From Omnitrophica bacterium GWA2_41_15 (GTDB lineage Bacteria > Omnitrophota > Gorgyraeia > Gygaellales > Profunditerraquicolaceae): a stretch of DNA of 64,000 nucleotides. The stretch covers positions 38,499 to 102,498 of the forward strand of contig CAKKQB010000028.1 in the NCBI GenBank assembly GCA_919901915.1, written 5' to 3'. Positions 473-63,402 of the stretch are shown in pieces (within the stretch, counting starts at the first letter, position 1; every line of letters begins with the position of its first letter). The notes beneath the pieces were generated by a model. The model was not told the origin of the DNA, searched no databases, and saw only the letters and a program-made list of their open reading frames with translations. The position numbers and the translations under genes are program-made.

Positions 473-661
473 GTCATTCCCGCGAAAGCGGGAATCCAGA
501 ACAAGAATCTGGGAAAAAGGTGACTGTCACGCCTTTTATGACTGTCACCTTTTTTTCGCCCCGAATTATCATTCGAATTACCATTAAGGCAGACACATAG
601 GTCTGCCCCTACGGTTTCCCCGGAATTCTCCAGTAGAGACGAGGCACTGCCTCGTCTCTAC
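473..661. repeat. Cluster of four distinct palindromic elements downstream of SBBP paralog A
   Basis: gtcattcccgcgaaagcgggaatcc at 473-497; ggtgactgtcacgcc..gactgtcacc at 512-556; ggcagacacataggtctgcc at 588-607; gtagagacgaggcactgcctcgtctctac at 633-661. Further copies occur at 3147-3197, 2285-2316 and 41646-41685. Confidence 0.8.
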
Positions 662-675
662 ACGACAGGGGCAAA

Positions 676-3123
676 CTAACTATTACAACCGAAAAAAATG
701 GCTTTATTATCAGTCGGTTCAACCTCTATTTTTGCGACAAAACCCCCATAATAGCTAATAGACCTAGAGACACTCCCACTCCAAGAGGAAAAAAGTTTCC
801 AATTACTTTTACTATTATTATCGCTACTGGTGAAACGGCTATTAGACACACCCCCAACATAGACATTATTACTATATACGGCCAGAGCAGTAACTTGATC
901 ATAGCCCGTATCACCTAACCATCGGAGCCATTTAATTGTAGGCATGGGGCTAGAAGATGTAGCGTCATCAATAATTTTCATAACGAATCCTTCATCAGTT
1001 ATGCCGCTATTAGTACCATTAAACTTTGTATTTCCACACCCCTCTTTACCGGTATTAAAATTAAGATAATTTTTAGACACCCCCCCAACATAGATATTTT
1101 TACCTTTCACAGATAAAGCGTTAACCCGGTCATCCCCATCTCCGCCTAACCACAACATCCAGCTTAAAGTAGGTTTGCCAACAGAATCCTCAATGATTTT
1201 CGCGACGAATCCTTCATCTTTTCTAGTAGGGCAAACCATACAAAAAAACCCCCCCCCAACATAGATATTTTTACCGCTCACAACCAAAGCAGTAACTTGA
1301 TCATAAGAACCTGTCCCATAGACACCTGTTTTGGCTAACCATTGACCCCACTTTAAAACAGGATTACCAGTCTCATCAGAAATTTTTATAACAAATCCAT
1401 CGCTATGGTCTTCTCTCTTCTTATCATCAAGTCCGGGTATTCCCCAGCCAACTGTACTAACAGACCGCCCCCCAACATAGATATCGCTACCATTCACAGC
1501 CAGAGCAAAAACTCGATCCTCACTATTTCCGCCTAACCATTGACCCCACTTTAAAACAGGCTTACCAGTCTCATCAGAAATTTTTATAACGAATCCATTA
1601 GGAAAAATACTCCACCCATCAGAGAGCCCGGTTATCGTCGACCAGCCAGTGCTTGACCCACAACCCCCCGCAACGTAGATATTAGTACCGCTCACAGCCA
1701 AAGCAGTAACTCGATCCTGCCCCATATCTCCTAACCATTGTCCCCACGCTATATCACCCTTAGTAGATTTATCAACAATCTTTATAACGAATCTCCTTAT
1801 ACCTGTACAACTGATATCTTTCCAATTATTGGCAATGGGCGTTGTTGACCAATTAGTTGTAGCCTTGGATTCCCCCCCAGCATAGATACTACTACCGTTC
1901 ACAACCAAATTAGTAACTCGATCAAAACTCGTTGCTCCGCCGTCTAAAAATTTACTCCACTTTCTACAAGCTTTACTAGTAGAAGAATCATAGCCGATTT
2001 TCATAACGAATCCGTTCGTACCTGTGTTACGGGCATCGGTAGTGGATGTCACAAAATTACTATTAGAATACGCCCCCCCAACGTAAATATTACTACCATT
2101 CACAGCCAGAGCAAAAACTCGATCCTCCTTATCGCTTATATCTAACCAAAAACCCCAAGCTAATGAAACAACGCTTGGATCAATAAGCAAAGGGTAATTG
2201 GAAAGAGGTTCTTTGATAGAGATAACTAAAGTATCTTGACCAATAATAGTGTAAGAAGCAGTTTTCTTACAACGATCACGTTTTGCAGTAGAGACGAGGC
2301 ATTGCCTCGTCTCTGCATTTGTCCAATAAACAAGAGGTTCTAAAGTAGCAAGAAGTTTTTCATCGCCAAAGCTTACATCACGTTTTAAGGCTTTACGCAC
2401 AGCATCCATTACGCAAGCGCGTTTTTTAGGGTCGGAATTATCTATGCCGGAAATCTTCATCGTTCTATAAATATTAACACTGCCGTTAGACTGTTGCTTA
2501 AGGGTTATGCTCGCGCCGGCATCAGCGGAGAACTTCCAGGTGTATTGGCTTAAATTATCAGGATGGTTAAAAGCCGTAGCTTGAATCCACTCTTTTAATC
2601 CTGCGCCGGAAGAAGATTGGGAAGCAAAATAAATAATAGTATCGGTTGACCGTTGATAAACCTGCGCATGGCCAAACGATTTAGACCTTGCCGTAAACTG
2701 TTTAAAAAGAACAGAACCCTTATCTAACTCCATAGTGAACGAAACAGTATCTTGTCCGTTTTCTATCTGAAAACGTTTTTTGACGGTATCTGATTTAGCG
2801 TCAAAAATAACGCGCATTTTTGCTTGACCCTGACGGTTGCCAAAGCCTTCGTCATTCCGGCGCAAGCCGGAATCCAGTCTGGGCTCTTGCATAGTAAATG
2901 TTACGGCATCAGGGCTAGTTTGAAATTGCGGTTTGCCAACAGATGGCTCTGGCGCGAGTTTAGATATTTGTTTAAGTATTCCTGCAACCATAGACAACTC
3001 TTGAGCTGTCGGACCGGGGATAGCCGCAAAAGTATTACTGCCTAAAAACCCCTCAAAAGGAAACAGGGTAAATGCCCATAAAACAACTAAACTAATTATT
3101 GATCTATATTTTCGCATTATCAT
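676..3123 (-). CDS. Secreted SBBP-type beta-propeller repeat protein, paralog A
   Basis: N-terminal signal peptide. At least 8 repeats of the form W(G/L)QWLG..DRV.ALAVNGSNIYVGG...GFV(M/I)KI. The N-terminal ~270 aa are near-identical at DNA level to 30072..31733. Stop is TAG. Copies of repeat elements lie in frame at 2285-2316 and 2851-2877. Confidence 0.6.
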   Translation of the reverse strand: MIMRKYRSIISLVVLWAFTLFPFEGFLGSNTFAAIPGPTAQELSMVAGILKQISKLAPEPSVGKPQFQTSPDAVTFTMQEPRLDSGLRRNDEGFGNRQGQAKMRVIFDAKSDTVKKRFQIENGQDTVSFTMELDKGSVLFKQFTARSKSFGHAQVYQRSTDTIIYFASQSSSGAGLKEWIQATAFNHPDNLSQYTWKFSADAGASITLKQQSNGSVNIYRTMKISGIDNSDPKKRACVMDAVRKALKRDVSFGDEKLLATLEPLVYWTNAETRQCLVSTAKRDRCKKTASYTIIGQDTLVISIKEPLSNYPLLIDPSVVSLAWGFWLDISDKEDRVFALAVNGSNIYVGGAYSNSNFVTSTTDARNTGTNGFVMKIGYDSSTSKACRKWSKFLDGGATSFDRVTNLVVNGSSIYAGGESKATTNWSTTPIANNWKDISCTGIRRFVIKIVDKSTKGDIAWGQWLGDMGQDRVTALAVSGTNIYVAGGCGSSTGWSTITGLSDGWSIFPNGFVIKISDETGKPVLKWGQWLGGNSEDRVFALAVNGSDIYVGGRSVSTVGWGIPGLDDKKREDHSDGFVIKISDETGNPVLKWGQWLAKTGVYGTGSYDQVTALVVSGKNIYVGGGFFCMVCPTRKDEGFVAKIIEDSVGKPTLSWMLWLGGDGDDRVNALSVKGKNIYVGGVSKNYLNFNTGKEGCGNTKFNGTNSGITDEGFVMKIIDDATSSSPMPTIKWLRWLGDTGYDQVTALAVYSNNVYVGGVSNSRFTSSDNNSKSNWKLFSSWSGSVSRSISYYGGFVAKIEVEPTDNKAIFFGCNS

Positions 3124-3211
3124 ATTTTACACATCCGTTATTTTCAGGAATCTGGGGGAAAAGGTGACTGTCACGCTCTTTGTGACTGTCACCTTTCTTT
3201 CAAAACCGCAA

Positions 3212-5031: not shown

Positions 5032-5098
5032 ATTTGTTAGCCAGTTGTTAACCGGTTTGCCAGTTTGCCGGTTAGCCGGTTAACCGGCAAATATATTT

Positions 5099-8962: not shown

Positions 8963-9096
8963 CCCTTACTTTAATGCAAAAATCAAGACGTCGAGCGTAT
9001 AGCGCAGAGCGTATAGTGGATAGTAAAATCTAACCTATCCGCTAAACGCTATCCGCTAAACGCTAAAACATTCTTCTTTTGCTATTTGATTCTTTA

Positions 9097-17197: not shown

Positions 17198-17253
17198 TTT
17201 TAGCGGATAGCGGATAGCGGCTAGCGTATAGTTTTTCTATCCGCTATCCGCTT
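17198..17253. repeat. Heptamer-tandem hairpin (gcggata)n ... (tatccgc)n; one example of a pervasive family
   Basis: tttagcggatagcggatagcggctagcgtatagtttttctatccgctatccgc. More than 20 family members with different heptamer units sit at gene boundaries and inside genes. The coordinates are given in the findings. Confidence 0.85.
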
Positions 17254-21647: not shown

Positions 21648-23129
<1,482 letters not shown>

Positions 23130-26291: not shown

Positions 26292-26410
26292 TGTTTTAGC
26301 GTTTAGCGGATAGCGTTTAGCGGATAGTTTATCATGTCCTATACGCTCTACGCTATGCGCTCTACGCTCATCTTGCTCTACGTTATACGCTTGACATTTG
26401 AATCTCTTTA

Positions 26411-28006: not shown

Positions 28007-28043
28007 CTCCTGATAGTTTTAATAACAATTCCCTCCCCCTTGT

Positions 28044-28136
28044 GAGACTGGGTCAAATAGCTGTGTCATTCCCGCGAAAGTGGGAATCCTGAGACTGGGT
28101 CAAATAGCTGTGTCATTCCCGCGAAAGCGGGAATCC
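28044..28136. repeat. Tandem duplication of a 'gagactgggtcaaatagctgtgtcattcccgcgaaagcgggaatcc' unit
   Basis: Two nearly identical ~46-nt units at 28044-28089 and 28091-28136. Each contains the gtcattcccgcgaaagcgggaatcc palindrome. Confidence 0.8.
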
Positions 28137-28163
28137 ACGAAGGGAAATACTTCTTATTAAACC

Positions 28164-29303: not shown

Positions 29304-29393
29304 AGACACCTCCTTGTGTGCGTATCTCGTATCTCGTGAATCGTATCTCGTCATTCGTCGTTCGCATTTCGTAACGATTCACGAGATACGAAC

Positions 29394-30005: not shown

Positions 30006-30071
30006 CTCCTCAATTAATGTCTACTGTCAAGGTCTGACCCCATTTTAGTTAACACAACCGGGGTAACTTAC

Positions 30072-31733
30072 TTAACTGTTACAACCGAAAAGAATAGCGT
30101 TATTCTTAGTAGATTCATCCCCTAGTTTTACGACAAAGCCGTCTGCGCCAACGACAAGATGCTTTTGCGGTTCCCATGATGTTGCTTCCCAGCCGGCTTC
30201 ATCACACGACCATCCTCCAACATAAATATTCTTACTATTCACAGCTAACGCAATAGGTTCCTCTCCAGGGCCAGAAATGCCTTTTTCACCTAACCATTGA
30301 CCCCACTTTACTGCAGGCAAAATGCCATCAATAATTTTTATAACGAACTTTTGCTTATGACCACTATATGTCCCCAAAAATGTTGTTTCCCAACCTATTT
30401 GAGGGCTGGTAACGCCAATCCCATAGGTATTGGACGTCCCTCCAACGTAAATATTATTACCATTCACAGCTAAAGCATTAACTGAATCCATTGCTTTTCC
30501 ACCTAACCACTGACCCCATTTCAATTCAGGCTTATTAGTAACGGGATTATCGAAAATTTTTATAACAAATAGTTCCCTCGTGCTAGAGCTTTTAAACTCA
30601 CCTAACATCGTTATTCCATCCAAGCCGGTTTTGCTAGTTGACTCCCCCCCAACATAGATATTGCTACCATTTACAGCTATGCATAGAACTAAATCATAGA
30701 TTTTTCCTCCTAACCATTGACCCCAAACCACCGAAGCACTCGGATCAATAAGCAACGGGTAATTTGAAAGAGACTCTTTAATAGAAACAGTTAAGGCATT
30801 ATCAGCGTTAATAATATAGGATGCAGTTTTTTTAACTCCATCAGCTGTCCAATAAACAAGAGGTTCTAAAATAGCGAGAGGTTTTTCATCGCCAAAAGCG
30901 ACATTATGGTTTAAGGCTTTACGCACAGTATCCATTACCGAGGCGCGTTTTTTAAGGTCAGAATTATCTATGCCGGAAATCTTCATTGTCCTGTAAACAT
31001 TAACACTACCGTTGGGCTGTTGTTTGAGAGTTACGCTTGCGCCAGAGTCAGTTGAAAATTTCCAGGTATATTGGCTTAAATTATCAGAATGATTAAAAGC
31101 CGTAGCTTGAATCCACTCTTTTAACATTGCGCCTTGAGCAGATTGAGAAGCAAGGTATATAATAGTGTCTGTTGGCCGTTGATAAACCTGCGCAGAGCCC
31201 AGCGGTTTAGATTTAACGGTGAACTGTTTAAAAGGGGCAGAATTATTATCTAATTCCATCGTGAACGAAGCAGTATCTTGACCGTTTTTCATCAGAAAAC
31301 GTTTTTTGACGGTGTCCGATTTAGCATCAAAAGAAACGCGCATTTCCACTGGGCTCGACCGACCGAGGGCGGAATGCCCGAGGAAGTCGGGATAATGCTC
31401 CACTCCTTCGTCATTCCGGCGCAAGCCGGAATCCAGTCCGGACTCTGACATAGCAAATGTTACAGCATCACTATTAGTTTGAAATTTTGGTTTACCTGTA
31501 GGAAATAAAGCAAGAGGCTCTGGCGCGAGTTTAGATATTTGCTTAAATATCCCCACGGTCATAGACAACTCTTGAGCTATTGGCCCAGGAATAGCCGCGT
31601 ACACGTTACCAGTTAAAAAAGGCGCCGAAGAAAACAAAATAAACACTGGTAAAATAATTAAACTAACTACTGCGGCATACTTCCTTATCATTTTCAATCC
31701 TCCATTTAAACTTCTACGCCCTTTTTCATCCAT
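30072..31733 (-). CDS. Secreted SBBP-type beta-propeller repeat protein, paralog B
   Basis: The N-terminal ~270 aa are homologous to 676..3123 (AIPGPIAQELSM..QISKLAPEP..DSGLRRNDEG). WGQWLGG...NIYVGG repeats and a C-terminal ...FGCNS. In-frame repeat copies at 31356-31392 and 31409-31435. Confidence 0.6.
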   Translation of the reverse strand: MDEKGRRSLNGGLKMIRKYAAVVSLIILPVFILFSSAPFLTGNVYAAIPGPIAQELSMTVGIFKQISKLAPEPLALFPTGKPKFQTNSDAVTFAMSESGLDSGLRRNDEGVEHYPDFLGHSALGRSSPVEMRVSFDAKSDTVKKRFLMKNGQDTASFTMELDNNSAPFKQFTVKSKPLGSAQVYQRPTDTIIYLASQSAQGAMLKEWIQATAFNHSDNLSQYTWKFSTDSGASVTLKQQPNGSVNVYRTMKISGIDNSDLKKRASVMDTVRKALNHNVAFGDEKPLAILEPLVYWTADGVKKTASYIINADNALTVSIKESLSNYPLLIDPSASVVWGQWLGGKIYDLVLCIAVNGSNIYVGGESTSKTGLDGITMLGEFKSSSTRELFVIKIFDNPVTNKPELKWGQWLGGKAMDSVNALAVNGNNIYVGGTSNTYGIGVTSPQIGWETTFLGTYSGHKQKFVIKIIDGILPAVKWGQWLGEKGISGPGEEPIALAVNSKNIYVGGWSCDEAGWEATSWEPQKHLVVGADGFVVKLGDESTKNNAILFGCNS

Positions 31734-34242: not shown

Positions 34243-35275
34243 TTTTAGCGTCCTCTGTTGAATTTATAATTAACTTAGGCCTTCCAGTAAGAACAATCTT
34301 TTTATCTGAAGCGGTATAAAGCGCTTCTTCGCTGTAAGAAACATTTTCCCCGCGAGAAATCTTTACATTTCCCTTCGCGATAATCTTGTCTATTTGGCTT
34401 CCTATGGATTTCGGCCCTTGCTTTAATTCACCAGTAGGGACAGCGCAGTGCGCTGTCCCTACAGCTGTCCCTACGTTATCTTTGTGTTCCCTACCGGTCC
34501 GAATAAAATAGACATCCATTTTATCGCTCGAGATTTCAGATCCCTGCTGGCTGACTTTAACATTATTGCTAAATTGAGCGATATTTTTTTCATAATCTAC
34601 CTCAAGCGGGCCATCGCAGGTAATGATTATTTTTTCTTGTGATTTTACGCCTAAAAGCCCTTCTTTCTGAACAGGCTCAATGTCTAACCGCACATCGCGT
34701 TCTAAGGCAATCTGTTTTAAATCAGACTGCCCCTTTACCCCTGTCGCCGTCACAGTCATATTATCTCTTTTTATATTTACCGGATCACCTGTTGTAACAA
34801 CCCCGCCTTTTCTATCCCAATCCAAAGAATCAGTAGTTAGTTTTGTGCCGCCGGAAGTAGTAATAACAACATCCTGCTTTAGATTAACCTTACCATTTTC
34901 TTTATTGAAATCGCCTTTTTTAGCGCTAAGCCGAATATCTTCTCCTTTTCCATAAAAATTACCCACCACACTATCAAGCTTTACCTGCGATTGAAAAATA
35001 TCGGCTGTTTTAGCGCGAAGATCCCATTCCTTTTTACCTTTTTCTCCCTGGCCAGCAACGCTAAAATCATTAATCTGCTGATCTGCTTCAATAGATGACT
35101 GTTCAGCGGCAAATGAGAAATTATAAATACCAAAACATAAATAACAAAATAAACATAAAGCGTAAAATAAGCTCGTATCTCGTGAATCGTATCTCGTGAA
35201 TCGTTTCCCAACGAGATACGAGATACAAGATACAAAATACGAGATACGAACGACGATTCCTATTCTAAATATCAT
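34223..35275 (-). CDS. OstA-like LptA/LptC-family periplasmic LPS transport protein; start is uncertain
   Basis: Beta-jellyroll OstA-like repeats with the pattern K.N.....NV.......I..D. Lies between kdsC and lptB as in the canonical operon. The N-terminal ~35 codons translate the heptamer repeat at 35172-35260. Confidence 0.55.
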
Positions 35276-35807: not shown

Positions 35808-35859
35808 ATTTGTGAACCGGTGAACCGGTGAACTGGTTAACCGGTTAACCGGCTAACCC

Positions 35860-38532: not shown

Positions 38533-38597
38533 ATTTCCTCACTTTGTTCGGAAGAGTACAGAGAACAGAAAACAGAGAAAAACCTTTCTGTACTCTC

Positions 38598-39623: not shown

Positions 39624-40211
39624 TAGTAATGAAAATTTTAGCGCCTTACGTCGTTATGTATTTGTATTCGAAGTTCTAATTTTAGCATAAATTTTAATTA
39701 AATCAATACTATTTTAGGAATGCGTCAAGCCAATTTAGAAATGTCGTATTTTCATATTTCAATTACGAGGTGTCTGAATTGTTGCATTTTTGGGCGAGCA
39801 AGCGACCGAGGGCGAAATGCCCGAGGAAGTGTCGCGCCCATCTGGGCGGGACCTCGCCCCTACTTTAGAATACGACATTTCTAAATTGGTAGAATACGAC
39901 ATTATCATATTGGGATGACATACTATTTTAAACACAAACCCTATCCCGCCTTTTCTGCCACTTTTTGGCCATTTTTCGCGAAATATCATGGCTAAACCTA
40001 TCGCACCCCCGTCATTCCGGTGAAAACCGGAATCCAGTCACATAAAAATCACTGGACCCCGACTTTCGTCGGGGTGACGCACCTTGCCTTCGTCATTCCA
40101 GCCCCGATTTTCATCGGGGCAGGCTACATCCGGAATCCAGGTTAATAATATTTCCTGGATTCCGGATTAAAACATTCCGGAATGACGGTTTTTCTTAATT
40201 GTGACACAGTC
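39624..40211. repeat. Non-coding region of ~590 bp filled with nested palindromic elements
   Basis: TIR pair aatttagaaatgtcgtatt / aatacgacatttctaaatt flanks a GC-rich gggcgagcaagcgaccgagggcgaaatgcccgaggaagt...gggcgggacctcgcccc hairpin. Three gtcattcc..ggaatcc units follow at 40011-40140, then ggattccggattaaaacattccggaatgacgg at 40158-40189. Confidence 0.75.
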
Positions 40212-42344
40212 TTATTTACCGGCGACTGCCGTTTCTATTGCGCAGTTTGGACGGGTTAAGATCGCGTCAGCGGCTTCTATTACATCCTCTATGCTGACAG
40301 CTTTAAGACAGGCAAATTCTTTTTTGCAGTTATGCGCCAGACATTCAATACATCCTGCTTCTTTATGATGTAAAATTTTGTCTCTTTCACCCAACGGTCC
40401 CCAGCGTTTAGGGCTTAGGCCTTTTTGATTCCTGCCAAATATGGTAATTACAGGCGTCCCCACTGCCACAGCAATATGCATGGGGCCAGAGTCAGTGGAA
40501 ATAAACAACTTACACCTCTTTAAAATACTGGCTAACTGGCTTATTGACGCTCTTCCTGTCAGGTTAATTACAGGAATACGCGAATGTTTCACTAAATTTA
40601 ACGCCAATAAAGAGTCTTGCGCTCCGCCAACCACAATCACCTTAAAACCATATTTTTCAACCACCCTCTCGCCAACCCGGGCAAAACGCTCCTGCGGCCA
40701 AATCCTAGACGGACAACTTGCGCCCGGATGAATTGCCAATATTTTATCAGAGCTCTTAATCCCTTCCTTGCTAAATAATGTCTCTACCCAATCTTCAGAA
40801 TCCTGCCTAATGGGAACAAATAATTTTTTATCTTTTGGCTCAATCCCCAAAGCCCTTACCAAATCAAGGCTGTATTCTACCTCATGTTTTTCTCCTAATT
40901 GTTTAGTATGTTTTATTCTTTTTGTAAGCAAAAAACCTAATTTATAGTCATACCCAATTCTTCTGGGTATGCGAGCAAAAAATATTACAAGATGCGCGCG
41001 GCTTGTAGGATGCAAAATCAGGCTTACATCAAATCTTTTTTTCTTTAATTGGCTGGAAAATTTTAATGACCCATACCAGCTTTTATGCAAAGCGCTCTTA
41101 TCATATATTATTACGTCATCTAAATAAGGATTGACCTCCACTATTTCCTTTGTATAAGGCGAAACCATCATCGCTATATAGGCATTAGGATATTCATCTC
41201 TTAATGCCTTTATTACCGGCGTGGATAAAACCACATCGCCGATTCTATCGGTCCTTACGATAAGAATCCGCTTGAAATTATTTTTTGAGCGGATAGTGTT
41301 TGGCGGATAGCGGAACCCCAAAATATTTCTTACATCTCTTATTACATCTTCAACCTTAATCAAATTCATACACTCTACAGTATCAAACCTGCACTGTGCC
41401 GCTTGACACGGCCGGCAAAAAATATCCTTTTTAACTACCGCGCGAACCTCTGACCAAGGGCCATATTTCTCCTCATTAGTAGGCCCAAATATTGCTGCTA
41501 CAGGGACATTTAAATAACTAGCCAAATGCGAAACCGCGCTATCATTGCTTACCAATATTTTTGCTTTTTTTAATAACGCGGCCAATTGCAAAAAAGTTAT
41601 TTTTCCGGCTAAATCTATTATAGATTCTTCGCCCTTCGAACCCGTAAAAAGGTAACTGTCACGCCCTTTGCGACTGTCACCTTTTTGTTCACCTTTTTTT
41701 AGATACTCCGTTATAACTGCGTCATCCTTATCTCCCACCAAAATTATCTTGGCAGAAAATTCTTGTATTAAAAATGGAATTAATTCCGCGAACTTGTCCT
41801 TGTCCCACATCTTCAGATGACTGCGCGCTCCCGGGGCAATAACGATTATTTTATCCCCGGCGGCTAAACCATTCTCTTCCAATATTTTTTTAATACATTC
41901 TTCGTCTTGGCGGCTAATATATAAAGACTTTTTATCCGCGGCTTCTCGCGGACTTTCACGAACTCCCATAGCGCTAAGCGCCCCGCGCAAGCGCCTTTCC
42001 TTCATATGTTTTATTTTCCCGGAAATAAACAGAAACGGCGAAATTTTAATCTTCGCGGGTAAAAACGCGCCATACAAACTATTACGCAAATCAAAAACCG
42101 CGTCAAACTTTTCCTTCTTAAGTTGATTGAATAATTTTATCTTATCCCTTAACTTTGAATGTTTATTATAAATAATGAGTTTATCTATGGAAGGGTTATT
42201 TTCGAATATCTCCTTTGGGCGAGGAGCAGTCATAACCGTAATTTTAGCCGCAGGAAACTTCTCTTGCAATATATCCAAAACCGGCAAAGTCAGGACCACA
42301 TCGCCGAGATTACTTAGAGTAATAAAGAGAATCTTGTTTATCAT
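40212..42344 (-). CDS. Tandem-fused double GT9 heptosyltransferase (two ADP-heptose:LPS heptosyltransferase domains in one 710-aa ORF)
   Basis: Two complete GT9 folds, each ending in the ...SNDSGPMH..A..TP...FG motif region. Two palindromic repeat copies are read in frame: 41646-41685 (encoding GDSRKGRDSY) and 41288-41316 (FRYPPNTIRS). Confidence 0.75.
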   Translation of the reverse strand: MINKILFITLSNLGDVVLTLPVLDILQEKFPAAKITVMTAPRPKEIFENNPSIDKLIIYNKHSKLRDKIKLFNQLKKEKFDAVFDLRNSLYGAFLPAKIKISPFLFISGKIKHMKERRLRGALSAMGVRESPREAADKKSLYISRQDEECIKKILEENGLAAGDKIIVIAPGARSHLKMWDKDKFAELIPFLIQEFSAKIILVGDKDDAVITEYLKKGEQKGDSRKGRDSYLFTGSKGEESIIDLAGKITFLQLAALLKKAKILVSNDSAVSHLASYLNVPVAAIFGPTNEEKYGPWSEVRAVVKKDIFCRPCQAAQCRFDTVECMNLIKVEDVIRDVRNILGFRYPPNTIRSKNNFKRILIVRTDRIGDVVLSTPVIKALRDEYPNAYIAMMVSPYTKEIVEVNPYLDDVIIYDKSALHKSWYGSLKFSSQLKKKRFDVSLILHPTSRAHLVIFFARIPRRIGYDYKLGFLLTKRIKHTKQLGEKHEVEYSLDLVRALGIEPKDKKLFVPIRQDSEDWVETLFSKEGIKSSDKILAIHPGASCPSRIWPQERFARVGERVVEKYGFKVIVVGGAQDSLLALNLVKHSRIPVINLTGRASISQLASILKRCKLFISTDSGPMHIAVAVGTPVITIFGRNQKGLSPKRWGPLGERDKILHHKEAGCIECLAHNCKKEFACLKAVSIEDVIEAADAILTRPNCAIETAVAGK

Positions 42345-46798: not shown

Positions 46799-48748
46799 TT
46801 ACATTATCCTCTTTACCGCTTCAACTACCAAAAGATTATCCTTAGGCGTATAAATCGAAGGATTCGTTCGCCAGATATGATCAATTTTTTTACCTAATTC
46901 CAAAATATCAACTAAATAAATATATTTGTTTCTGGCAAAATAATCAAGGAATCTTTTATGCTTCCCGTCTAATCCGGACGACTTAAAAACAAACGTATAT
47001 TTATTACTGCTTACTGCCTCTGAAACCATGGACAAACTGTCAGGAGAAGTTACAATAATTTTACTCAAACCAAGTATCCCTCCCACAGCCTCCGGAACAT
47101 TCTTTTCATTAGCTACAATTAGCATTTTACAACGTGGATAATCTCTGAACTCCTCTTTAACCAAAGCCTCTACTTCTTTTGAACTACGCCTTGAAGTTGT
47201 AATCAGAATACCTGCGTTCAAACTTTCAGATACTGCTTTTACCTGCTTAATCACCCCTAAAACCGTGTCTTTGTTAAGAGTGAAATTTTTCGTATCTCCC
47301 CCGATTAATAAACCAATGTAAAATCCAGTATTGCGTATTGCGTATTGCGTATTGCGTATTAACTTATCCGTCTCTTCTTTTAAATAAACCTCATCTATTA
47401 AATTCAGCGCTCCCTCGGTCACTACGACATTTTTTCTCTTCGGCGGGCAATCGTGTTTAGGCATTATTACCAGATCAAATCTTTTCATGCTTAATACAGA
47501 CGGCCGCATAACTACTATTGACTTAGCCATGTTTTCTCTGGCTAATATAAAATTAATCGGAGCCGCGCTTGCGCCGCAAGAAATTATTATATCGGGCTTC
47601 GCGCTTATTAAGCCATCATAAACATCACTTTTAAGAAAACTCTTCAAGCACCCTGAACAGCCCTGGCAATTATATTTACCTGCCAAAAAACTACTAAAAA
47701 TAAGCGCGTATTTAGAAAAATTGTTTTTAAATCTTATTTCTTTACTTTCAATTTTCGCCTCAATTCCCCTCTCCTTTAAAACATCACTAACGAGCCTCGC
47801 TACGCCTTGCGCCTGCCGGACATGCCCGGCTTTCGCGTCATTTAAAAGCAAAATACTTTTCTCTTTCGTATACTTCCATATTTTATAAGTCCAAAAAAGT
47901 TCTTTAGGGTATTTAAAAATATATTTTTCATAAACCCCAACCAGCCTTTGTAGATTGCTCTGAATATCTTTATCCGAATCGGCGCTCTTTTTGATTTCAA
48001 ATGCCGGCTCAATAAAAACCTTTGTAAACGGCCCTTTTACCCGCGTATAAAAAACCGGAATAATCGCGGCATCATACCTTAGCCCCAACTTCAACGCGCC
48101 GGTTGCCATAGAAGCGTATTGGCCGAAAAACTTAACCAAAACGCCGTTTTTACCGCCTTGGTCCATAGTCATACCAACCGCGCAATTATCTCCAAGCGCT
48201 TCAATTAATTGGCGTATACCGCCTTTTCTATAAATCACTTTAGAGCCTTTTAATCCACGGTATGAATTGAGCAGTTTATTCAGGCGGGGATATTTTTGCC
48301 CTTGCACGAATACAACATAAGGAAATCCAAGGTTAGCGCCGATAATATTAGAAAGCTCCCAACTGCCTTCGTGAACCACTAAAAGAATTACGCCTTTCCC
48401 TTTCTTAAAACCGGCAGAAATATTTTCCAATCCCTCGAAAGCCACATATTTATCTAAATATTTTTTATCCACCAAAGGGACAAGAAATACCTCTATCAAA
48501 TTCTGTCCAAATGCCCGATAAAATTCCTTGGTTATCCGGAATAATTCAGATGGCGGCTTCTCCTGTCCGAAGGCTGTTTTTATATTAGAATAGGCAACCG
48601 CCCTATGCCTAACATCAAAACAAAAAAGAAAATCACCCAGCCTTCTTCCCAGAAAAAAGCTAAAATTTTTAGGCAAGCATCTAATAAAAGAACCAACCGC
48701 CCTAAAAAGAATACAGCCCCAATAATCTATTATAGAATTCTTGTTCAT
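46799..48748 (-). CDS. Lipid A biosynthesis acyltransferase (LpxL/HtrB family) fused to a ~350-aa C-terminal domain of unknown function
   Basis: N-terminal LPLAT domain with the HEGSWE (H-x-N/S-WE) motif. An in-frame repeat insert NTQYAIRNTQYAIRNT is encoded by the gcgtatt heptamers at 47335-47363. Confidence 0.6.
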   Translation of the reverse strand: MNKNSIIDYWGCILFRAVGSFIRCLPKNFSFFLGRRLGDFLFCFDVRHRAVAYSNIKTAFGQEKPPSELFRITKEFYRAFGQNLIEVFLVPLVDKKYLDKYVAFEGLENISAGFKKGKGVILLVVHEGSWELSNIIGANLGFPYVVFVQGQKYPRLNKLLNSYRGLKGSKVIYRKGGIRQLIEALGDNCAVGMTMDQGGKNGVLVKFFGQYASMATGALKLGLRYDAAIIPVFYTRVKGPFTKVFIEPAFEIKKSADSDKDIQSNLQRLVGVYEKYIFKYPKELFWTYKIWKYTKEKSILLLNDAKAGHVRQAQGVARLVSDVLKERGIEAKIESKEIRFKNNFSKYALIFSSFLAGKYNCQGCSGCLKSFLKSDVYDGLISAKPDIIISCGASAAPINFILARENMAKSIVVMRPSVLSMKRFDLVIMPKHDCPPKRKNVVVTEGALNLIDEVYLKEETDKLIRNTQYAIRNTGFYIGLLIGGDTKNFTLNKDTVLGVIKQVKAVSESLNAGILITTSRRSSKEVEALVKEEFRDYPRCKMLIVANEKNVPEAVGGILGLSKIIVTSPDSLSMVSEAVSSNKYTFVFKSSGLDGKHKRFLDYFARNKYIYLVDILELGKKIDHIWRTNPSIYTPKDNLLVVEAVKRIM

Positions 48749-49796
48749 TTTTTATGATTGTTAATTCGATACGCAAGACTAAAATTCGTGAAGCGTGAGG
48801 CGTGAAGCGTGAAGCGTAAAGCCGCGCCGCGTCCTTTTCTGTGGTGATAATTGTGTCTATACCCTTATCAACAGAATCTTTGATAATTTTATCTATATCT
48901 GTCTTGATGTAATTATGGTGGTCGGGAAATTTAAAAGATAAGCCTATTTTAGCGCCGAGTGAAATAATCAAATTTTCAAAGGAATCGGGGTCTCCTATGC
49001 CGCAAAATATACTTACGCGCTTATCCTTAAGTATATCTGTCCCAAATAATTCAGCGCTTTTTTCAAGATTATATAATCCTATGGGTTTATGAACACTTTC
49101 CGCGATCAATGTTTTTGGATTAATCTTACTTAAAATATCTTTAAGCTCATCCAGTTTCACCCCAAAATCAACCTTGGTCAAAAAAAAGATATCCGCGCGC
49201 CTCAAGCAAGAAAGCGGCTCGCGCAAGATCCCCCTGGGTATCATATGGCGGTTACCAAAGGGATTAACAGCATCAATAGTTACAATCTCTAAATCTTTTT
49301 TAAGCCTCCACTGCTGAAAGCCATCATCCAACATAACCGTATCCACGCCATAATCTTTAAGCGCTCTTTTTGCCGCCCTAATTCTATCCGCATCCACAAT
49401 TACCGGAATATCGTTTAATTTTTTAGAAAGCATGTAGGGCTCATCGCCCATGGTTTCATAGCGGATAGCGGATAGCGCCTGCCTGCCGGCAAGGCAGGGA
49501 TAGCGGATAGATTTTCTTTTATAACCGCGGGTTAATATTGCGACTTTGCGGCCTTCCTGTTTTAAATACCTCGCGATAACTTCAACTAAAGAGGTTTTTC
49601 CTGTCCCGCCTACGGTAATATTACCCACGCTGATGACTTTAACATTCAGGCGATTCTGCCTAAGGAAACAAAAAAAGATTAAACCCCTGATTACTAATCC
49701 ATAAATAAGGGAGATAAGAAATAGGAAACCTTTTACAATAGCCGGGCCAATTCCCTTATATTTATCTGTAGCTAAATTATAAAGATACTTTTTCAT
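48702..49796 (-). CDS. lpxK: Tetraacyldisaccharide 4'-kinase
   Basis: P-loop GNITVGGTGKT. Two in-frame repeat inserts: SIRYPCLAGRQALSAIRY (49459-49510) and RFTPHASR (48786-48823). Confidence 0.85.
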   Translation of the reverse strand: MKKYLYNLATDKYKGIGPAIVKGFLFLISLIYGLVIRGLIFFCFLRQNRLNVKVISVGNITVGGTGKTSLVEVIARYLKQEGRKVAILTRGYKRKSIRYPCLAGRQALSAIRYETMGDEPYMLSKKLNDIPVIVDADRIRAAKRALKDYGVDTVMLDDGFQQWRLKKDLEIVTIDAVNPFGNRHMIPRGILREPLSCLRRADIFFLTKVDFGVKLDELKDILSKINPKTLIAESVHKPIGLYNLEKSAELFGTDILKDKRVSIFCGIGDPDSFENLIISLGAKIGLSFKFPDHHNYIKTDIDKIIKDSVDKGIDTIITTEKDAARLYASRFTPHASRILVLRIELTIIKNEQEFYNRLLGLYSF

Positions 49797-50084
49797 ATAT
49801 TCTGTATCTTATCACACCGAGAGACTCCTGACAACATTTTATTGTAACCTAATCGTAGCCAAATTCAACCGCAAGATCGAATCAATTAATCTCCGATGAC
49901 AAATCAAAGCAAGCGCTTTCTTTTAGAGCTGATTTAGCCTTGTTTTTACCCAATTCATAGTGTATACTTTAAGTATAAATACGTATATCGTATCCATGAT
50001 TTTCACTACGCGGTAGAACCTTCAGCAAAAGCTTTCAGCTTAAAGCTTAAAGCTTTTGCTGACAGCTGATAGCTGATAGCTAAA

Positions 50085-50249
50085 ATGCGCAAACTTATAA
50101 TTTTAATTATCCTTATTACCTTTTCCTTCACCTCCTTAGGCTTCCCCCCAGGTTCTGCCTTCCCTTCCTGTCATTCCTGCGAAAGCAGGAATCCAGTCTC
50201 AACCCTTACTTCGTTACCTAAGCGTCAACTCTGCCAATCCCCGTAATTA
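50085..50249 (+). CDS. Signal-peptide-encoding 5' segment, probably the frameshifted start of the long ORF 50497..52320
   Basis: MRKLIILIILITFSFTSLG, then a C6 tract at 50144-50149. Removing one C joins this frame to the ~120 codons that run stop-free (from 50141, no ATG) into the 607-aa ORF. Confidence 0.45.
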
Positions 50250-50496
50250 TTTTAATTTCCTCTTAGATGAAGGAGGCTATCAGCCTTCAGCTGAAAGCCG
50301 AAAGCTGATAACTGACAGCTTAACAGATGAAGCCAAAAAACTCATCCATTATTTTTTCCTCGGCATTACCCTACCCTCAACCGCGTTCTGGGTAAACCTA
50401 CAACCAACTCAATCAGACAGAATTACCTCAGATGAACTCTCTAAGACTGATTTAGGCAGAACCCTGTTAGAGCAAGACTTACAACTTAAGAAAGAT

Positions 50497-52320
50497 ATGG
50501 CTAATTATTTGCATCCCAAGAATCCCGTAGGCAAACTCTATTGGGAAAAACTCTATTCTGCAATCGGCAAAGAAAAAGCCAAGAAAGCTAAAATTACTAC
50601 CTCAAATCGTGTCTGGATTACTCCGAATCAAGCAGTGGTTATGGAAACTGAAGACGGAGCCTTGGTTGCTAAGGCAACCCTAAAAGTAATGTTGGAGAAC
50701 GAATATCTGAGTAACCAGACACCTCCGCGGTGGCCGAAGGCCTCCGCGGAGGTGGAAGCGGTTAAGAATGAGCAAACCCAACAACTCAGCGAGCAACTAA
50801 TGAAAGAAATCATCATTCCTGCAATAACTAAGGACATCAACGAAAGCCCACGCTATGCGCCCTTGCGCCAGGTTTATTACTCTTTAATATTAGCAGAGTG
50901 GTATAAGAGAAAAGTTAGCCGAAAGCTGACAGTTGATAACCCATCCCCTTACGCCCCCTATATTAACTCCGGCACAACCGCCGGTTTGGAATCCGAAGTC
51001 CCTTGGAAAAAGCAAGCAATCTGGCAGGAATACCTAAAAAGCTACCAACAAGGCGAATACAAACTTCAGGATACGCTTTTTGGCCTAAAGAGGATGTATT
51101 TTAGCGGGGGGATAATAATTGAGTTAGGCAATACCCCTACTTTAACATCTATCACTCAAAAAAAATTATTAAATAATCCCGATTTAGCAAAGGGGTTAAG
51201 CATTTCAAAGAATCCTAATGAAGCACTTGTTATAGTAAATACTATTTTGGAAGATAATAAGCAAATCGCCAGCTCGTCTATGGATGGTCAATCTAATGAT
51301 CGATCTTTGGTTTATGAGCAGTGTTCTTTTGATTTTATAAAAGATGAAAGGAAAAAAGTTTTAGACATTCAAGCTGAAACTTTATTCAAAGAAATGGATG
51401 AATTGCAACAAAGAATAAATGCGCTTAATATTGTTAGCGACCTTTCCAAATTAGTTTGTAATGAAGATACACTTATTCGTAAAATTGGTGGAATTCTCTC
51501 TTCCTTTAAAAATTTAAAACAAAAAGTAGGCGCATCTAAGGAAAGTCTTTCATATGAAAGACTTAATAATAGGCTAAAAGAATTGGAAGAGTTACTATTT
51601 GAAAGATGTTATTTTTCAGTTTTGAAAGATTTGGAGAAAGAAAGATATAATGAGATTAGGTATGTTCAGAAGTTTTTGACGCTAAGATTATGTAGGGAAT
51701 CTTTAAATCTTATTGATTCTTTCATTAAGCATTTCCCGGATTTAAGCAAAGAAGAGCGAAAAAAATACTTATGGAATACTGAACTGCAGGTAGCTAACGT
51801 CCTTATACGGGATGATCTTTTTAGGGGAATAACGGCAAAGAATGATATTGCATGGATTAAAGATATGATGATAAAGGGTAAATTTCTTAGTGTCGCACCT
51901 CCTTTAAATAACTGTTGGTTATCGGCAAATTATTTTTATTCAACATTTAGATATAATGATGAATCTCCGCGAGCAAAATTGCTTTGTATCTTAGATGCTT
52001 TCCGAATATATGGGCATGTTTTAGCAGAGGAAGAATACTTCTCCGAATCGGAAGAGGAAAAATACTCCGACGCATCGGGATGGAGAAGCTGTTTAGAGGG
52101 TGACTTAGAAGATATCCTTAGTTCTTTAGATACAAAAGAATTTTATCAGATATCATCTTTGTCTAAGTTAGTTTCCTTAATTAAAAAAGAATTGAAAATC
52201 AAGAAGAACCCTTTGCTTAAGTTATTTAGAAAAAGTTTGTTTCAAAACGATGAAATAAAAGAATGTATTACTGAAATTGCCCTTTATTTTTTAAGGCAAA
52301 AAAAGGCATCGTATCCATAA
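50497..52320 (+). CDS. Large hypothetical protein, 607 aa as tracked; about 727 aa if joined to the upstream signal peptide
   Basis: No recognisable domains and a central coiled-coil-like region. The upstream in-frame extension is open and includes a translated gtcattcctgcgaaagcaggaatcc element (VIPAKAGIQ). Confidence 0.5.
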   Translation: MANYLHPKNPVGKLYWEKLYSAIGKEKAKKAKITTSNRVWITPNQAVVMETEDGALVAKATLKVMLENEYLSNQTPPRWPKASAEVEAVKNEQTQQLSEQLMKEIIIPAITKDINESPRYAPLRQVYYSLILAEWYKRKVSRKLTVDNPSPYAPYINSGTTAGLESEVPWKKQAIWQEYLKSYQQGEYKLQDTLFGLKRMYFSGGIIIELGNTPTLTSITQKKLLNNPDLAKGLSISKNPNEALVIVNTILEDNKQIASSSMDGQSNDRSLVYEQCSFDFIKDERKKVLDIQAETLFKEMDELQQRINALNIVSDLSKLVCNEDTLIRKIGGILSSFKNLKQKVGASKESLSYERLNNRLKELEELLFERCYFSVLKDLEKERYNEIRYVQKFLTLRLCRESLNLIDSFIKHFPDLSKEERKKYLWNTELQVANVLIRDDLFRGITAKNDIAWIKDMMIKGKFLSVAPPLNNCWLSANYFYSTFRYNDESPRAKLLCILDAFRIYGHVLAEEEYFSESEEEKYSDASGWRSCLEGDLEDILSSLDTKEFYQISSLSKLVSLIKKELKIKKNPLLKLFRKSLFQNDEIKECITEIALYFLRQKKASYP

Positions 52321-55483: not shown

Positions 55484-56759
55484 TTTTTATTAATTCAATT
55501 GCCCTTTTTGTTGACCCCTTATTTTTAAAAAGCGTTTCTCCTGCCTTGCGGCCTATTTCCTTAGCCTGCCCGGGATCAATAAGGAGCTCTTTTATTTTTT
55601 GCTTTAGAGCCTCAGGGCTATTTACCATAATTGCGGCATCATCAGTCAAGAATAAATCAGTGATACCGCGAAAATTAAAGACGTGAGGGCCGAAGAGGAT
55701 TGGTTTTTCTAGGGAAGCGGGTTCTAAAATATTATGCCCGCCCTTTTGGACAAGGCTGCCGCCCACAAAGACAATGTCTGCGATTGTATAGTAACTCATA
55801 AGTTCTCCTATGGTATCTAGAATAAAAACTGTTTGCCGGTTTGCCCATTCACCCGTTAACCCGTTAACCCGCTCACCCATTAACCCGCTCACCCTTAAAG
55901 AATTAAATTCATATTTCTTTATCACCCGCTCTATCTCTTTAGCTCTCTCCGGATGCCGCGGGGCAATAAGTAATCTTAAATAAGGAAACTCCGACGATAA
56001 TTCTTTATAAACACTTAATATTATTTTCTCCTCCCCCGGATGCGTACTTGCCGCCACAAAAAGCTTTTCACGTTTTTCTAACCCTAATTTTTGCTTATAA
56101 TCCGTGTCCTTCGTGAATTTTTTATCCGTATAATCCGTAGTATCAAACTTCAAATTTCCGCTCACTTTGATTTTTTCCCGCGCAACCCCTAAAGCCGCGA
56201 ATCTTTCCGCGTCAAGTTGAGTTTGAACGCAAAAGAGCGAAATTTTGGTTAAAATTGGCTTTAATAAAAATTTTATAACTGAATACCCCTTAAAAGAGCC
56301 ATCTGAAATCCTGCCATTAACGGTAACAATCGGAATCTTTCTTTTATGGAGGCAGGAAATAAGATTCGGCCAAATTTCGGTTTCTGCCAAGATAAATAAG
56401 GATGGATTTATTTTATTTATTACTATCCGGACTAAGAAACTTAAATCTAAGGGAAGATACGTTACAAAGTCAGTTTCTTGGGCAATACTCTTTGCAATTT
56501 TATTTCCCGTGGCAGTTACAGTTGAAATTACGAAATTTTTACCGGGATAAGCCCTTCTTAACTCCTCCAATAAACTCCTTATCGCCATTACCTCGCCCAC
56601 ACTTACCGCGTGTATCCAGATGGGCCTATCTAATTTCAATCCCCGCGGCAAAATTCCCAATCGCGCCAAAAACCCCTTATGAAACTTCCTTTTAAATAAA
56701 TATACGGGTAAATAAATAAGCGCGAAAATCAAAAATATTAAATCGTATATTATAAACAT
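55467..56759 (-). CDS. waaA: 3-deoxy-D-manno-octulosonic acid transferase with an in-frame repeat insertion
   Basis: WIHAVSVGEV signature and a GT-B C-terminal domain (FVGGSLV.KGGHN.LE). The insert GERVNGLTGEWANRQ is encoded by the heptamer repeat at 55833-55896. Confidence 0.85.
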   Translation of the reverse strand: MFIIYDLIFLIFALIYLPVYLFKRKFHKGFLARLGILPRGLKLDRPIWIHAVSVGEVMAIRSLLEELRRAYPGKNFVISTVTATGNKIAKSIAQETDFVTYLPLDLSFLVRIVINKINPSLFILAETEIWPNLISCLHKRKIPIVTVNGRISDGSFKGYSVIKFLLKPILTKISLFCVQTQLDAERFAALGVAREKIKVSGNLKFDTTDYTDKKFTKDTDYKQKLGLEKREKLFVAASTHPGEEKIILSVYKELSSEFPYLRLLIAPRHPERAKEIERVIKKYEFNSLRVSGLMGERVNGLTGEWANRQTVFILDTIGELMSYYTIADIVFVGGSLVQKGGHNILEPASLEKPILFGPHVFNFRGITDLFLTDDAAIMVNSPEALKQKIKELLIDPGQAKEIGRKAGETLFKNKGSTKRAIELIKNELFR

Positions 56760-56795
56760 ATCATTAGTGATTAGTGATTAGTGCCCCTTTAATCT

Positions 56796-57164: not shown

Positions 57165-57205
57165 TTTTTCTCCCTAACCCTAATCCCTAATCACTAATCA
57201 CTATC

Positions 57206-61319: not shown

Positions 61320-61840
61320 CTTGTTATTTTTATAATTTTTTCTACAACTTTTCCCACAGAAAGCTTTGATGTATCAATGGCCTCATCCGCCAAGGCATAA
61401 TAAGGAGCGCGAAGCTTAAGTAGAGACGCTATCCGCTCTTTAGGGTCAAGAACATTTAAAAGAGGCCTGCGCGTAGTGCCGGATATCCTTTTTAATATCA
61501 CTTCTATAGCCGCGCTAAGACAAATTATAATTCCTGTTTTTTTCATTATTTTTATATTTTGCGGATTCATAACAATCCCGCCGCCGCAAGAAACCACAAA
61601 ATTTTTTTCTTTAGAAACCTCGCTTAAAACTTTTTTCTCTATCTTACGAAAATAAGGCTCGCCATTTTTAGCAAAAATTTCAGAGATAATTCTTTTTTCT
61701 TTAAGTTCAATTAAATCGTCCAAGTCCGCGAACTGCCATTTCTTTCTCTTGGCCAACTCTTTGCCAACCACGGTTTTTCCCGTTCCCATAAAACCAACGA
61801 GATAAATATTATTCATAGAAATATACTGTAGGGACAGCAC
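61316..61840 (-). CDS. aroK: Shikimate kinase
   Basis: Walker A GFMGTGKT at the N-terminus; 174 aa. Adjacent to aroC. Confidence 0.8.
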   Translation of the reverse strand: MLSLQYISMNNIYLVGFMGTGKTVVGKELAKRKKWQFADLDDLIELKEKRIISEIFAKNGEPYFRKIEKKVLSEVSKEKNFVVSCGGGIVMNPQNIKIMKKTGIIICLSAAIEVILKRISGTTRRPLLNVLDPKERIASLLKLRAPYYALADEAIDTSKLSVGKVVEKIIKITR

Positions 61841-61871
61841 AATGTGCTGTCCCTACTTAATGTAAATCGTT

Positions 61872-63313: not shown

Positions 63314-63402
63314 TACAGCCTCCTTTTGCGTATTGCGTATTGCGTATTGCGTATTGCGCAATACGCATCACGCACGACGCACGACGAAATATGCGCGACG
63401 AA

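Follow-up and report, generated by a model that had tools for sequence, protein, structure and literature searches.

REP-type hairpins of several families between and, in frame, within the genes of an Omnitrophota contig

How do short hairpin repeats that lie between the genes of a bacterium come to be translated as parts of its proteins? This question arises from a stretch of 64,000 nucleotides of Omnitrophica bacterium GWA2_41_15 (contig CAKKQB010000028.1, positions 38,499 to 102,498; hereafter the window), where palindromic elements of intergenic regions recur within two related genes (paralog A, 676–3123, and paralog B, 30072–31733), a double glycosyltransferase of the GT9 family and other genes. 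We consider it quite likely that these elements are mobile hairpins of the repetitive extragenic palindromic (REP) type, and that selection has left those intragenic copies that are in frame, free of stop codons and located in loops.

The window is contained in a metagenome contig of 121.7 kb (ENA ERZ1292638 NODE_43), and the homologs of its genes are nearly all labelled Candidatus Omnitrophota or Omnitrophica. Its G+C content is about 40%, its coding fraction 91%, and nearly all of its genes are found on the minus strand. It holds 20 perfect GC-rich hairpins with a stem of at least 8 bp, compared to about 0.8 in shuffled sequences, and 14 of the 20 fall into the intergenic DNA that accounts for 8.6% of its length. 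Downstream of paralog A, an array at 440–680 folds into a series of separate hairpins (z = -7.6), and no Rfam family scores above its gathering threshold anywhere in the window. These repeats resolve into at least five families, here termed F1, F2, F3, F4 and F6; the copies of F1, F2, F3 and F6 were counted in pattern searches that allow up to three mismatches and have an expectation of zero in shuffled sequence. The first-pass annotation had treated them as one 'second repeat family', which is instead a mixture of unrelated ones (CGTC-1, GTAG-tagged, F2 and F6, as described below). The sequences that it quoted are all present within a few bases of where it had placed them, and its central observation, that intergenic palindromic elements are also found in frame within coding sequence, is confirmed by both pattern searches and alignments. 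The translated in-frame copies number seven among about 58 genes and are distributed over at least five of these:

2281–2319, minus strand: segment of 39 nt (13 codons) present only in paralog A, with F3 at 2288–2316, encoding NAETRQCLVSTAK; fold z = -5.6
2851–2877, minus strand: F1 in frame in paralog A, antisense reading LDSGLRRND; from alignments and pattern search
31356–31398, minus strand: region with the 33 nt (11 codons) that paralog B has and paralog A lacks, holding F6 CTTCCTCGGGCATTCCGCCCTCGGTCG; low-copy repeat and weak palindrome
31410–31436, minus strand: F1 in frame in paralog B, identical to the copy in paralog A; from alignments
34434–34474, minus strand: F3 variant (GTAGGGACAGCGCAgTGCGCTGTCCCTAC and a duplicated arm of 12 nt) in frame in an LptC-LptA fusion, in a hypervariable loop; z = -5.4
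41631–41690, minus strand: insert of about 19–20 codons in GT9, residues 219–238, EQKGDSRKGRDSYLFTGSKG; core F2 at 41643–41689; z = -4.5
50170–50196, plus strand: F1 in frame of the conserved N-terminal region of a secreted protein, encoding (P)VIPAKAGIQ; absent from 14 homologs

The identity of the first family is apparent from its structure. F1 (GTCATTCCNGCGNAAGCNGGAATCCAG) occurs eight times in the window, at 473, 2851, 23050 (minus strand), 28065, 28112, 31410, 40011 and 50170, and three of these copies reside inside genes within 64 kb (2851 in paralog A, 31410 in paralog B and 50170 in the secreted protein). The element carries a terminal tag, which is CGTC at 2850, 31409, 40010 and 23077 (minus strand) and TGTC at 472, 28064, 28111 and 50169. 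All eight copies share the stem ATTCCNGC / GCNGGAAT with a GAAA or GCAA loop, and seven of them end in GGAAT-CCA, the tail being CCT at 28065. Within the stem, position 6 is occupied by C-G, G-C or T-A and position 8 by C-G or T-A. The CGTC-1 repeats are defined by an unpaired terminal CGTC, often TGTC, an 8-bp stem with complementary A and T at the first two positions and a 4-nt loop, and they further show a short unpaired 3' tail of the CCA type and sub-families with alternative complementary stem residues, and mainly form head-to-head dimers (Di Nocera, De Gregorio & Rocco 2013, PMC3733652). By its sequence, F1 is a CGTC-1 REP, in which tag, AT-starting 8-bp stem, 4-nt loop, CCA tail and sub-families are all recovered. 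Most of its copies in the window are solitary, with one opposed pair (22992–23076) and one tandem pair (28043–28138), and in this respect F1 departs from the head-to-head dimer habit, which is a tendency of the family rather than a strict criterion. The authors of that study equated CGTC-1 with dRS3 of Neisseria and with the Rickettsia palindromic element (RPE) RPE-6 of Rickettsia conorii, found no dedicated transposase of CGTC repeats and already recorded copies that lie wholly within open reading frames (ORFs) and are translated (PMC3733652).

The family extends far beyond the window. A scan covering one genome per species places the exact 27-mer of F1 in at least 120 stretches, whose genomes span many phyla and a G+C content between 31 and 70%, and the listed matches include groups of the candidate phyla radiation, Chloroflexota, Nitrospirota, Planctomycetota, Acidobacteriota, Rickettsia and Ca. 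Omnitrophus magneticus. In 143 copies from these matches, the flanks show no conservation, C or T is found at position -1 in 93% of cases, and the two bases at the variable stem position form a Watson-Crick pair in 137 of the 143 and a T·G wobble in two more. The same 27-mer is also present in 108 stretches of IMG/VR, which are viral or proviral contigs. By inspection, five of the six reading frames of F1 are free of stop codons, and the element is read as LDSGLRRND in the paralogs and as VIPAKAGIQ in the secreted protein.

A different distribution characterizes F2, whose layout (A5GGTGAC-T-GTCA ... TGAC-T-GTCACCT5) consists of an A-run, a stem and a T-run and is similar to an intrinsic terminator in both directions. 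Its pattern GGTGACTGTCAC...GTGACTGTCACC is found three times in the window, at 519, 3163 and 41651, the last within GT9, and in 104 metagenome stretches that originate chiefly from a few samples it has 192 occurrences, 176 of them unique. Some of the contigs bearing F2 are syntenic with the window at a nucleotide identity of 65–73% and are therefore from related Omnitrophota, and F2 is, as far as these searches of sequence reach, a lineage-restricted hairpin family. The full F2 hairpin is not called in a consensus terminator scan since a T·T mismatch interrupts its stem; the scan detects at most an inner stem of 5 bp in the GT9 copy, and it flags neither intergenic copy. F2 thus resembles a terminator by inspection and folding. 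Four of its six frames are, by inspection, free of stop codons, and it is translated differently depending on the gene, as GDSRKGRDSY, KVTVTKGVTVT or GDCHAFCDCH. Of the 176 unique copies in related contigs, no more than 9 are situated well within long ORFs, and genes with internal copies include those of a ComEC-like protein with four and of a protein of 1099 residues with three.

The remaining families are less frequent. F3 (GTAGAGACGAGGCAnTGCCTCGTCTCTAC) is present twice in the window, at 633 and, inside paralog A, at 2288, and the two copies differ in one stem base and one loop base. A GTAG terminus followed by a palindrome is common to F3 (GTAGAGACGAGGCA...), its variant (GTAGGGACAGCGCA...) and the minus strand of F4 (GTAGGGGCAGAC...), although the GTAG of F3 takes part in base pairing (GTAG...CTAC) within a stem of 14 bp, which is atypical for a GTAG REP. 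A second copy of F6 at 39806–39826 differs at one of 21 positions, and the repeat is also found in three metagenome contigs. Outside coding regions or at their margins, members of these families are located as follows:

473–499, plus strand: F1, CGTC-1-type REP hairpin (TGTC tag, 8-bp stem ATTCCCGC, GAAA loop, CCA tail); intergenic, the first hairpin in the array that lies downstream of paralog A
511–557, plus strand: F2, hairpin of 47 nt; intergenic, downstream of paralog A; fold z = -5.2
588–612, minus strand: F4, GTAG-tagged REP-like hairpin, minus strand GTAGGGGCAGACCTATGTGTCTGCC; intergenic, the one copy in the window
633–661, no strand: F3, perfect palindrome with 14-bp arms, GTAGAGACGAGGCAcTGCCTCGTCTCTAC; intergenic
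3155–3201, plus strand: F2; intergenic, upstream of paralog A, direct repeat of 511–557; z = -5.2
22992–23076, no strand: two CGTC-type hairpins in opposed orientation; upstream of the true PurA start, inside a called ORF of 485 residues
28043–28138, plus strand: tandem duplication of 2 x 47 nt, each unit ending with an F1 hairpin; intergenic
39780–40200, no strand: cluster of about seven hairpin repeats, F6 at 39806–39826, F1 at 40011–40037 and others of CGTC type; intergenic
61828–61856, no strand: palindromic variant of F3 where the called AroK ORF has its 5' edge; probably located between genes

These relationships bear on whether the intragenic palindromes might have been made on the spot, by template switching or slippage, and merely resemble the intergenic repeats. 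Such an origin could be suspected from the locally duplicated 12-nt arm of the F3 variant in LptC-LptA and from a 10-nt near-duplicate (AAAAAGGTGA) ahead of the GT9 insert. However, the intragenic copies match dispersed families over 27–47 nt where none would be expected by chance, F1 corresponds to a 27-mer of many phyla and F2 to a repeat with 192 copies in related contigs, so that local origin is effectively refuted by the family matches and appears very improbable.

What such an element does to a protein can be seen in the double heptosyltransferase GT9, a protein of 710 residues, where the F2 copy encodes GDSRKGRDSY. That this peptide occupies a loop had been proposed in the first-pass annotation and is corroborated by several observations. 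About 19 residues in the first half of the protein (EQKGDSRKGRDSYLFTGSKG) are absent from 119 Omnitrophota homologs, and a comparison with the solved structure 3tov reveals an excess of 19 residues in the region of the insert. In an AlphaFold model with a mean pLDDT (predicted local distance difference test) of 86.9, the sole long internal segment of low confidence comprises residues 222–237, which connect a helix (206–217) to a strand (242–244), thus placing the insert, in the predicted structure, in a loop. The insert folds on the mRNA strand (z = -4.5) and is preceded by the 10-nt near-duplicate of its own 5' end mentioned above. Judged from the homologous sequences, the change in GT9 would clearly be a gain. 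Three other Omnitrophota orthologs contain different perfect in-frame hairpins whose stems measure 7 to 17 bp; the loop is the same in two of them and a nearby one in the third, and in a syntenic relative the GT9 loop is devoid of F2, which is instead nested among further hairpins, in frame, in the linker between the domains. A single permissive loop of an enzyme of the lipopolysaccharide core was struck independently by different hairpins in different lineages. The GT9 double-domain ortholog of a related Omnitrophota, on a Ga-series metagenome contig (10585–12729; syntenic with 38.7–46.7 kb of the window), contains an in-frame linker insert of about 50 residues made of nested hairpins that include F2, and the DNA of about 200 nt spanning it folds at -86.7 kcal/mol.

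Since the source is a contig of a metagenome-assembled genome from short reads, it could be argued that in-frame copies are artefacts of assembly where repeats were mis-joined, and two units, one an 8-nt repeat and the other GA, set the window apart from the ENA version of the contig. We regard this as extremely improbable: the same proteins are recorded from NCBI and ENA, and GT9 also from an independent Logan assembly, the reading frame is kept across every copy, and comparable hairpins are likewise in frame in samples and assemblies unrelated to this one.

In-frame copies are also found in two further proteins. In the LptC-LptA fusion, the copy of the F3 variant occupies a loop that is hypervariable among homologs; a search of the PDB with the LptA-like part returned no matches, and the comparison was made through a representative library. 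In the secreted protein, the (P)VIPAKAGIQ encoded by F1 is missing from all 14 aligned homologs, and the change at 50170 would, from this comparison, also clearly constitute a gain. The gene is annotated from 50497 (607 residues) and is truncated, since by comparison with homologs it includes a signal peptide, which starts at 50085, and a conserved stretch at 50140–50496. One C too many in a C6 run at 50143–50148 disrupts the frame; this could be an assembly error, the mark of a pseudogene or a phase-variable tract. The protein (50497–52320) belongs to a large Omnitrophota-specific family with a shared N-terminal domain of about 300 residues that has no Pfam match, and with diverse C-terminal domains (radical SAM, methyltransferase, HEAT, TPR, kinase-like, M48 and others).

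The two paralogs offer a comparison within the window. They had been described as SBBP beta-propeller proteins, a label that finds no support at the thresholds of Pfam, where no family matches either protein at E ≤ 0.01 and the best match to SBBP (PF06739), for paralog B only, has an E-value of 0.2 and 12.1 bits compared to a cut-off of 20.5. Their N-terminal domain has no homolog except in the other paralog among 5.8 billion proteins. Alignments at the level of protein and DNA (676–3123 against 30072–31733) show the F1-encoded LDSGLRRNDEG to be common to both, in agreement with the SGLRRNDEG reported from the first inspection. They also delimit 39 extra nucleotides at 2281–2319 in paralog A, which contain the F3 palindrome and account for the AETRQCLVSTA that had correctly been assigned to this paralog only, and 33 extra nucleotides (11 codons) in paralog B, which contain F6. 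Both indels are multiples of three and each bears a member of a family; the idea that the differing segments are not element-shaped fails for F3. The second insert had likewise been described as a palindromic element unique to paralog B: it is found only there and is repeated at 39806, whereas its palindrome is weak (z = -1.0).

The timing and direction of these changes require more caution. The first-pass annotation took the differences as direct evidence of recent gain and loss. With a synonymous divergence (dS) of 0.63 and a ratio of nonsynonymous to synonymous changes (dN/dS) of 0.29, both paralogs are under purifying selection, as functional genes would be, and not recent duplicates, and the term 'recent' is unsupported because of this divergence. 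Gain and loss between the paralogs are unpolarised because there is no outgroup among the 5.8 billion proteins, and the indels are therefore not direct evidence of either. The shared F1 copy is uninformative on turnover and most simply older than the duplication. In the most economical history, F1 was inherited by both paralogs, and F3 would have entered paralog A and F6 paralog B after the duplication. The missing outgroup leaves room for the opposite course, a precise loss of each element from one paralog rather than a gain in the other, and a precise cutting of REP-type elements by their transposases has been proposed (PMC3733652). We think of such excision as unlikely, as no remnant is left in the copy that lacks each element, as one stem and one loop base are all that separates F3 in paralog A from its intergenic counterpart at a distance of 1.6 kb, which suits a younger insertion better than an element that predates a duplication with a dS of 0.63, and as the sites in GT9 and at 50170, where outgroups are at hand, clearly point to gain.

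Several features of the paralogs and of GT9 could also be accommodated if the intragenic hairpins were kept for a role at the level of nucleic acids, as translation-sensitive terminators or pause sites, signals for RNases or mRNA stability, or recombination and target sites. The strong folding that the mRNA strand shows at F2, F3 and the variant of F3 (z = -4.5 to -5.6), the bidirectional terminator layout of F2, the identity of F1 in both paralogs despite a dS of 0.63 and the repeated targeting of the same GT9 loop across lineages would all be in line with such a role. It is nevertheless disfavoured, and in our judgement quite unlikely, because nearly all orthologs of the host genes are without inserts and because the elements vary in position, in orientation and in family: lineages contain unrelated hairpins at different positions, and elements are found in either orientation relative to transcription. 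Moreover, the full F2 hairpin is not called in the terminator scan, and the alignment of the paralogs contains other identical runs of 24–32 nt. An exceptional conservation of F1 between the paralogs, which we had considered, was rejected on account of these equally long runs elsewhere.

Insertion of mobile hairpins followed by selection would proceed in several steps. Small G+C-rich stem-loop repeats of 27–60 nt would spread as non-autonomous mobile DNA, a step that we infer, and would accumulate as strings of hairpins between genes, where now and then one of them would insert within a gene. Selection would purge such intragenic copies unless their length is a multiple of three, their frame is free of stop codons and they reside in a surface loop or linker that tolerates them, and the surviving copies would be translated as short and functionally neutral loop insertions. 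Read in another frame or orientation, one and the same element yields an unrelated peptide, in keeping with a neutral role of the peptide. The sequences themselves show to which families the elements belong, that these are dispersed and in frame, that orthologs lack them and that the GT9 copy occupies a loop, whereas the way of transposition, the neutrality and the direction of change between the paralogs are inferred. For the GTAG elements, the mobiliser would be an HUH/Y1 enzyme resembling the REP-associated tyrosine transposases (RAYTs).

A number of points weigh against this explanation. F1 is identical in paralogs that differ at 16% of their positions and the intragenic hairpins are nearly perfect, which could instead result from selection or gene conversion that keeps the structure. 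F6, with a fold z-score of -1.0, is a low-copy repeat and a weak palindrome. The Pfam records of the window genes contain no RAYT, IS200/IS605, IS110 or other transposase, and a crude regular-expression search for HUH and Y motifs in the window and 833 kb of related contigs detected none, although a RAYT could have escaped it. No target-site duplication is found at the F3 insert or the F1 copies, and no conserved insertion site was recognised. The AlphaFold model of the N-terminal domain of the paralogs, which is based on two sequences, has a pLDDT of 37 and is unusable for placing their inserts. Finally, mobility would be deduced from comparison, rather than from presence/absence polymorphism among close strains.

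The described features assign the finding to a known phenomenon, the in-frame insertion of REPs and RPEs, because in-frame REPs within genes are already on record in Opitutus terrae, Rickettsia conorii (RPE-4 and RPE-6), Thauera and others (PMC3733652, which treats RPE-1, RPE-4 and RPE-6). With the CGTC-1 REPs of that study, F1 shares tag, stem, loop, tail, compensatory sub-families, the occurrence as single copies and opposed pairs and the translated copies internal to ORFs. Differences concern the host, as Omnitrophota are not among the phyla covered there, the mostly solitary copies and their high intragenic density. Rickettsia palindromic elements are reportedly the subject of an article by Ogata and colleagues that appeared in Science in 2000 under the title 'Selfish DNA in protein-coding genes of Rickettsia'. 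The resemblance lies in palindromic inserts that are in frame in many unrelated functional genes, at residue-tolerant sites, in a bacterium with a small genome. In-frame inserts absent from orthologs are found here in GT9, in the secreted protein and as the indels of the paralogs, and a site in a loop, as judged from a model, in GT9 only. RPE-1 is larger (100–150 bp compared to 27–60 nt), with F1 corresponding to the short RPE-6 class, and the elements described here comprise several unrelated families whose inserts are known from sequence and a predicted model.

F3 and F4 share with the GTAG REPs and REPINs, which are mobilised by RAYTs, a GTAG followed by a G+C-rich stem-loop and the clustering downstream of genes (PMC3733652; Bertels & Rainey 2011, PMC3116915). 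The gene of the cognate RAYT, a Y1 HUH transposase, is typically flanked by its REPs (PMC3733652; PMC3116915). In contrast, the GTAG of F3 is paired, its stem of 14 bp exceeds the usual 6–9 bp, and no RAYT was found in the sequence searched. Small dispersed repeats of heterocyst-forming cyanobacteria, reportedly described by Elhai and colleagues in Genome Research in 2008, are said to be similar in being mobile palindromic units of about 20–30 nt that are nested in larger repeats and reside in genes that remain unbroken, but to differ in sequence families and host. MITEs (miniature transposable elements with inverted repeats) carry the terminal inverted repeats of a parent insertion sequence (IS) and are bordered by target-site duplications. 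Like the elements described here they are non-autonomous, structured and dispersed and can be in frame in genes; however, neither IS-derived terminal inverted repeats nor duplications are seen in the window, where the 10-nt near-repeat beside the F2 copy of GT9 is the only duplication-like feature and the elements are shorter.

To this known phenomenon our analysis adds a new phylum, the density of in-frame copies, the presence of several families at once, the F2 family and the reuse of one loop. The wide occurrence of the CGTC-1 hairpin with compensatory stem changes and no known transposase also renders the puzzle of its copying and maintenance more visible. Many Omnitrophota are ultra-small and host-dependent. 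A more far-reaching interpretation, which we consider rather doubtful, would be a colonisation of the Omnitrophota proteome by active hairpin families as in Rickettsia, with F2 as an undescribed terminator-shaped element, a mobilisation by means other than RAYTs that is possibly shared with CGTC-1, and the F2 copy in GT9 possibly acting as a translation-dependent terminator. The 27-mer of CGTC-1 is kept nearly unchanged across 31–70% G+C, more than a dozen phyla and viral contigs.

The elements also affect annotation, as being free of stop codons they mislead gene callers. The called PurA ORF (21648–23105, 485 residues) begins about 62 codons early, its conserved N-terminus starting from about 22913, and the extension consists of two stop-free CGTC-type hairpins; the F1 pair at 22992–23076 was rejected as an intragenic case, since it is located upstream of this N-terminus. 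A called gene of 76 residues (39759–39989), which lies wholly in the hairpin cluster between PfkB and GT9, is probably spurious, and the truncation of the secreted protein is a third such effect. Loops made of lineage-specific elements can similarly confuse alignments and structure models.

Further observations concern the surroundings of the paralogs. The F2 copies at 511–557 and 3155–3201 flank paralog A, which is situated between ScpA and RuvB, as direct repeats, and might mark its insertion or duplication. A sequence of 21 nt, ACTGTCAAGGTCTGACCCCAT, is found at 443–463 and 30024–30044, where it follows each paralog on the downstream side and immediately precedes RuvB and ClpP, respectively. 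Its minus strand includes TTGACA, and 449–420 scores as promoter-like; at paralog A, the hairpin array of 189 nt (473–661) separates it from the stop codon.

Separate from the hairpins, the window contains simple tandem arrays with units of 7 or 8 nt (GCGTATT, TAGCGGA, CGTATCT, GTGAACCG/AACCGGTT, ACCCGTTA and others), with about four to six copies each and located mostly just upstream of start codons:

Tandem arrays: 5047–5087, 9035–9067, 17201–17231, 26295–26391, 29321–29358, 35173–35249, 35812–35858, 38553–38579
Tandem arrays, continued: 47328–47360, 48787–48822, 50021–50081, 55851–55898, 56763–56783, 57171–57203, 63326–63358

Compared to the ENA version, the window has one additional 8-nt unit (GTGAACCG) in an octamer array at 35819–35826 and one GA unit fewer at about 54863, in a (GA)n run between the genes of NTP_transf_2 and HepT; from one assembly to another, or else among members of the population, such simple repeats therefore differ in copy number.

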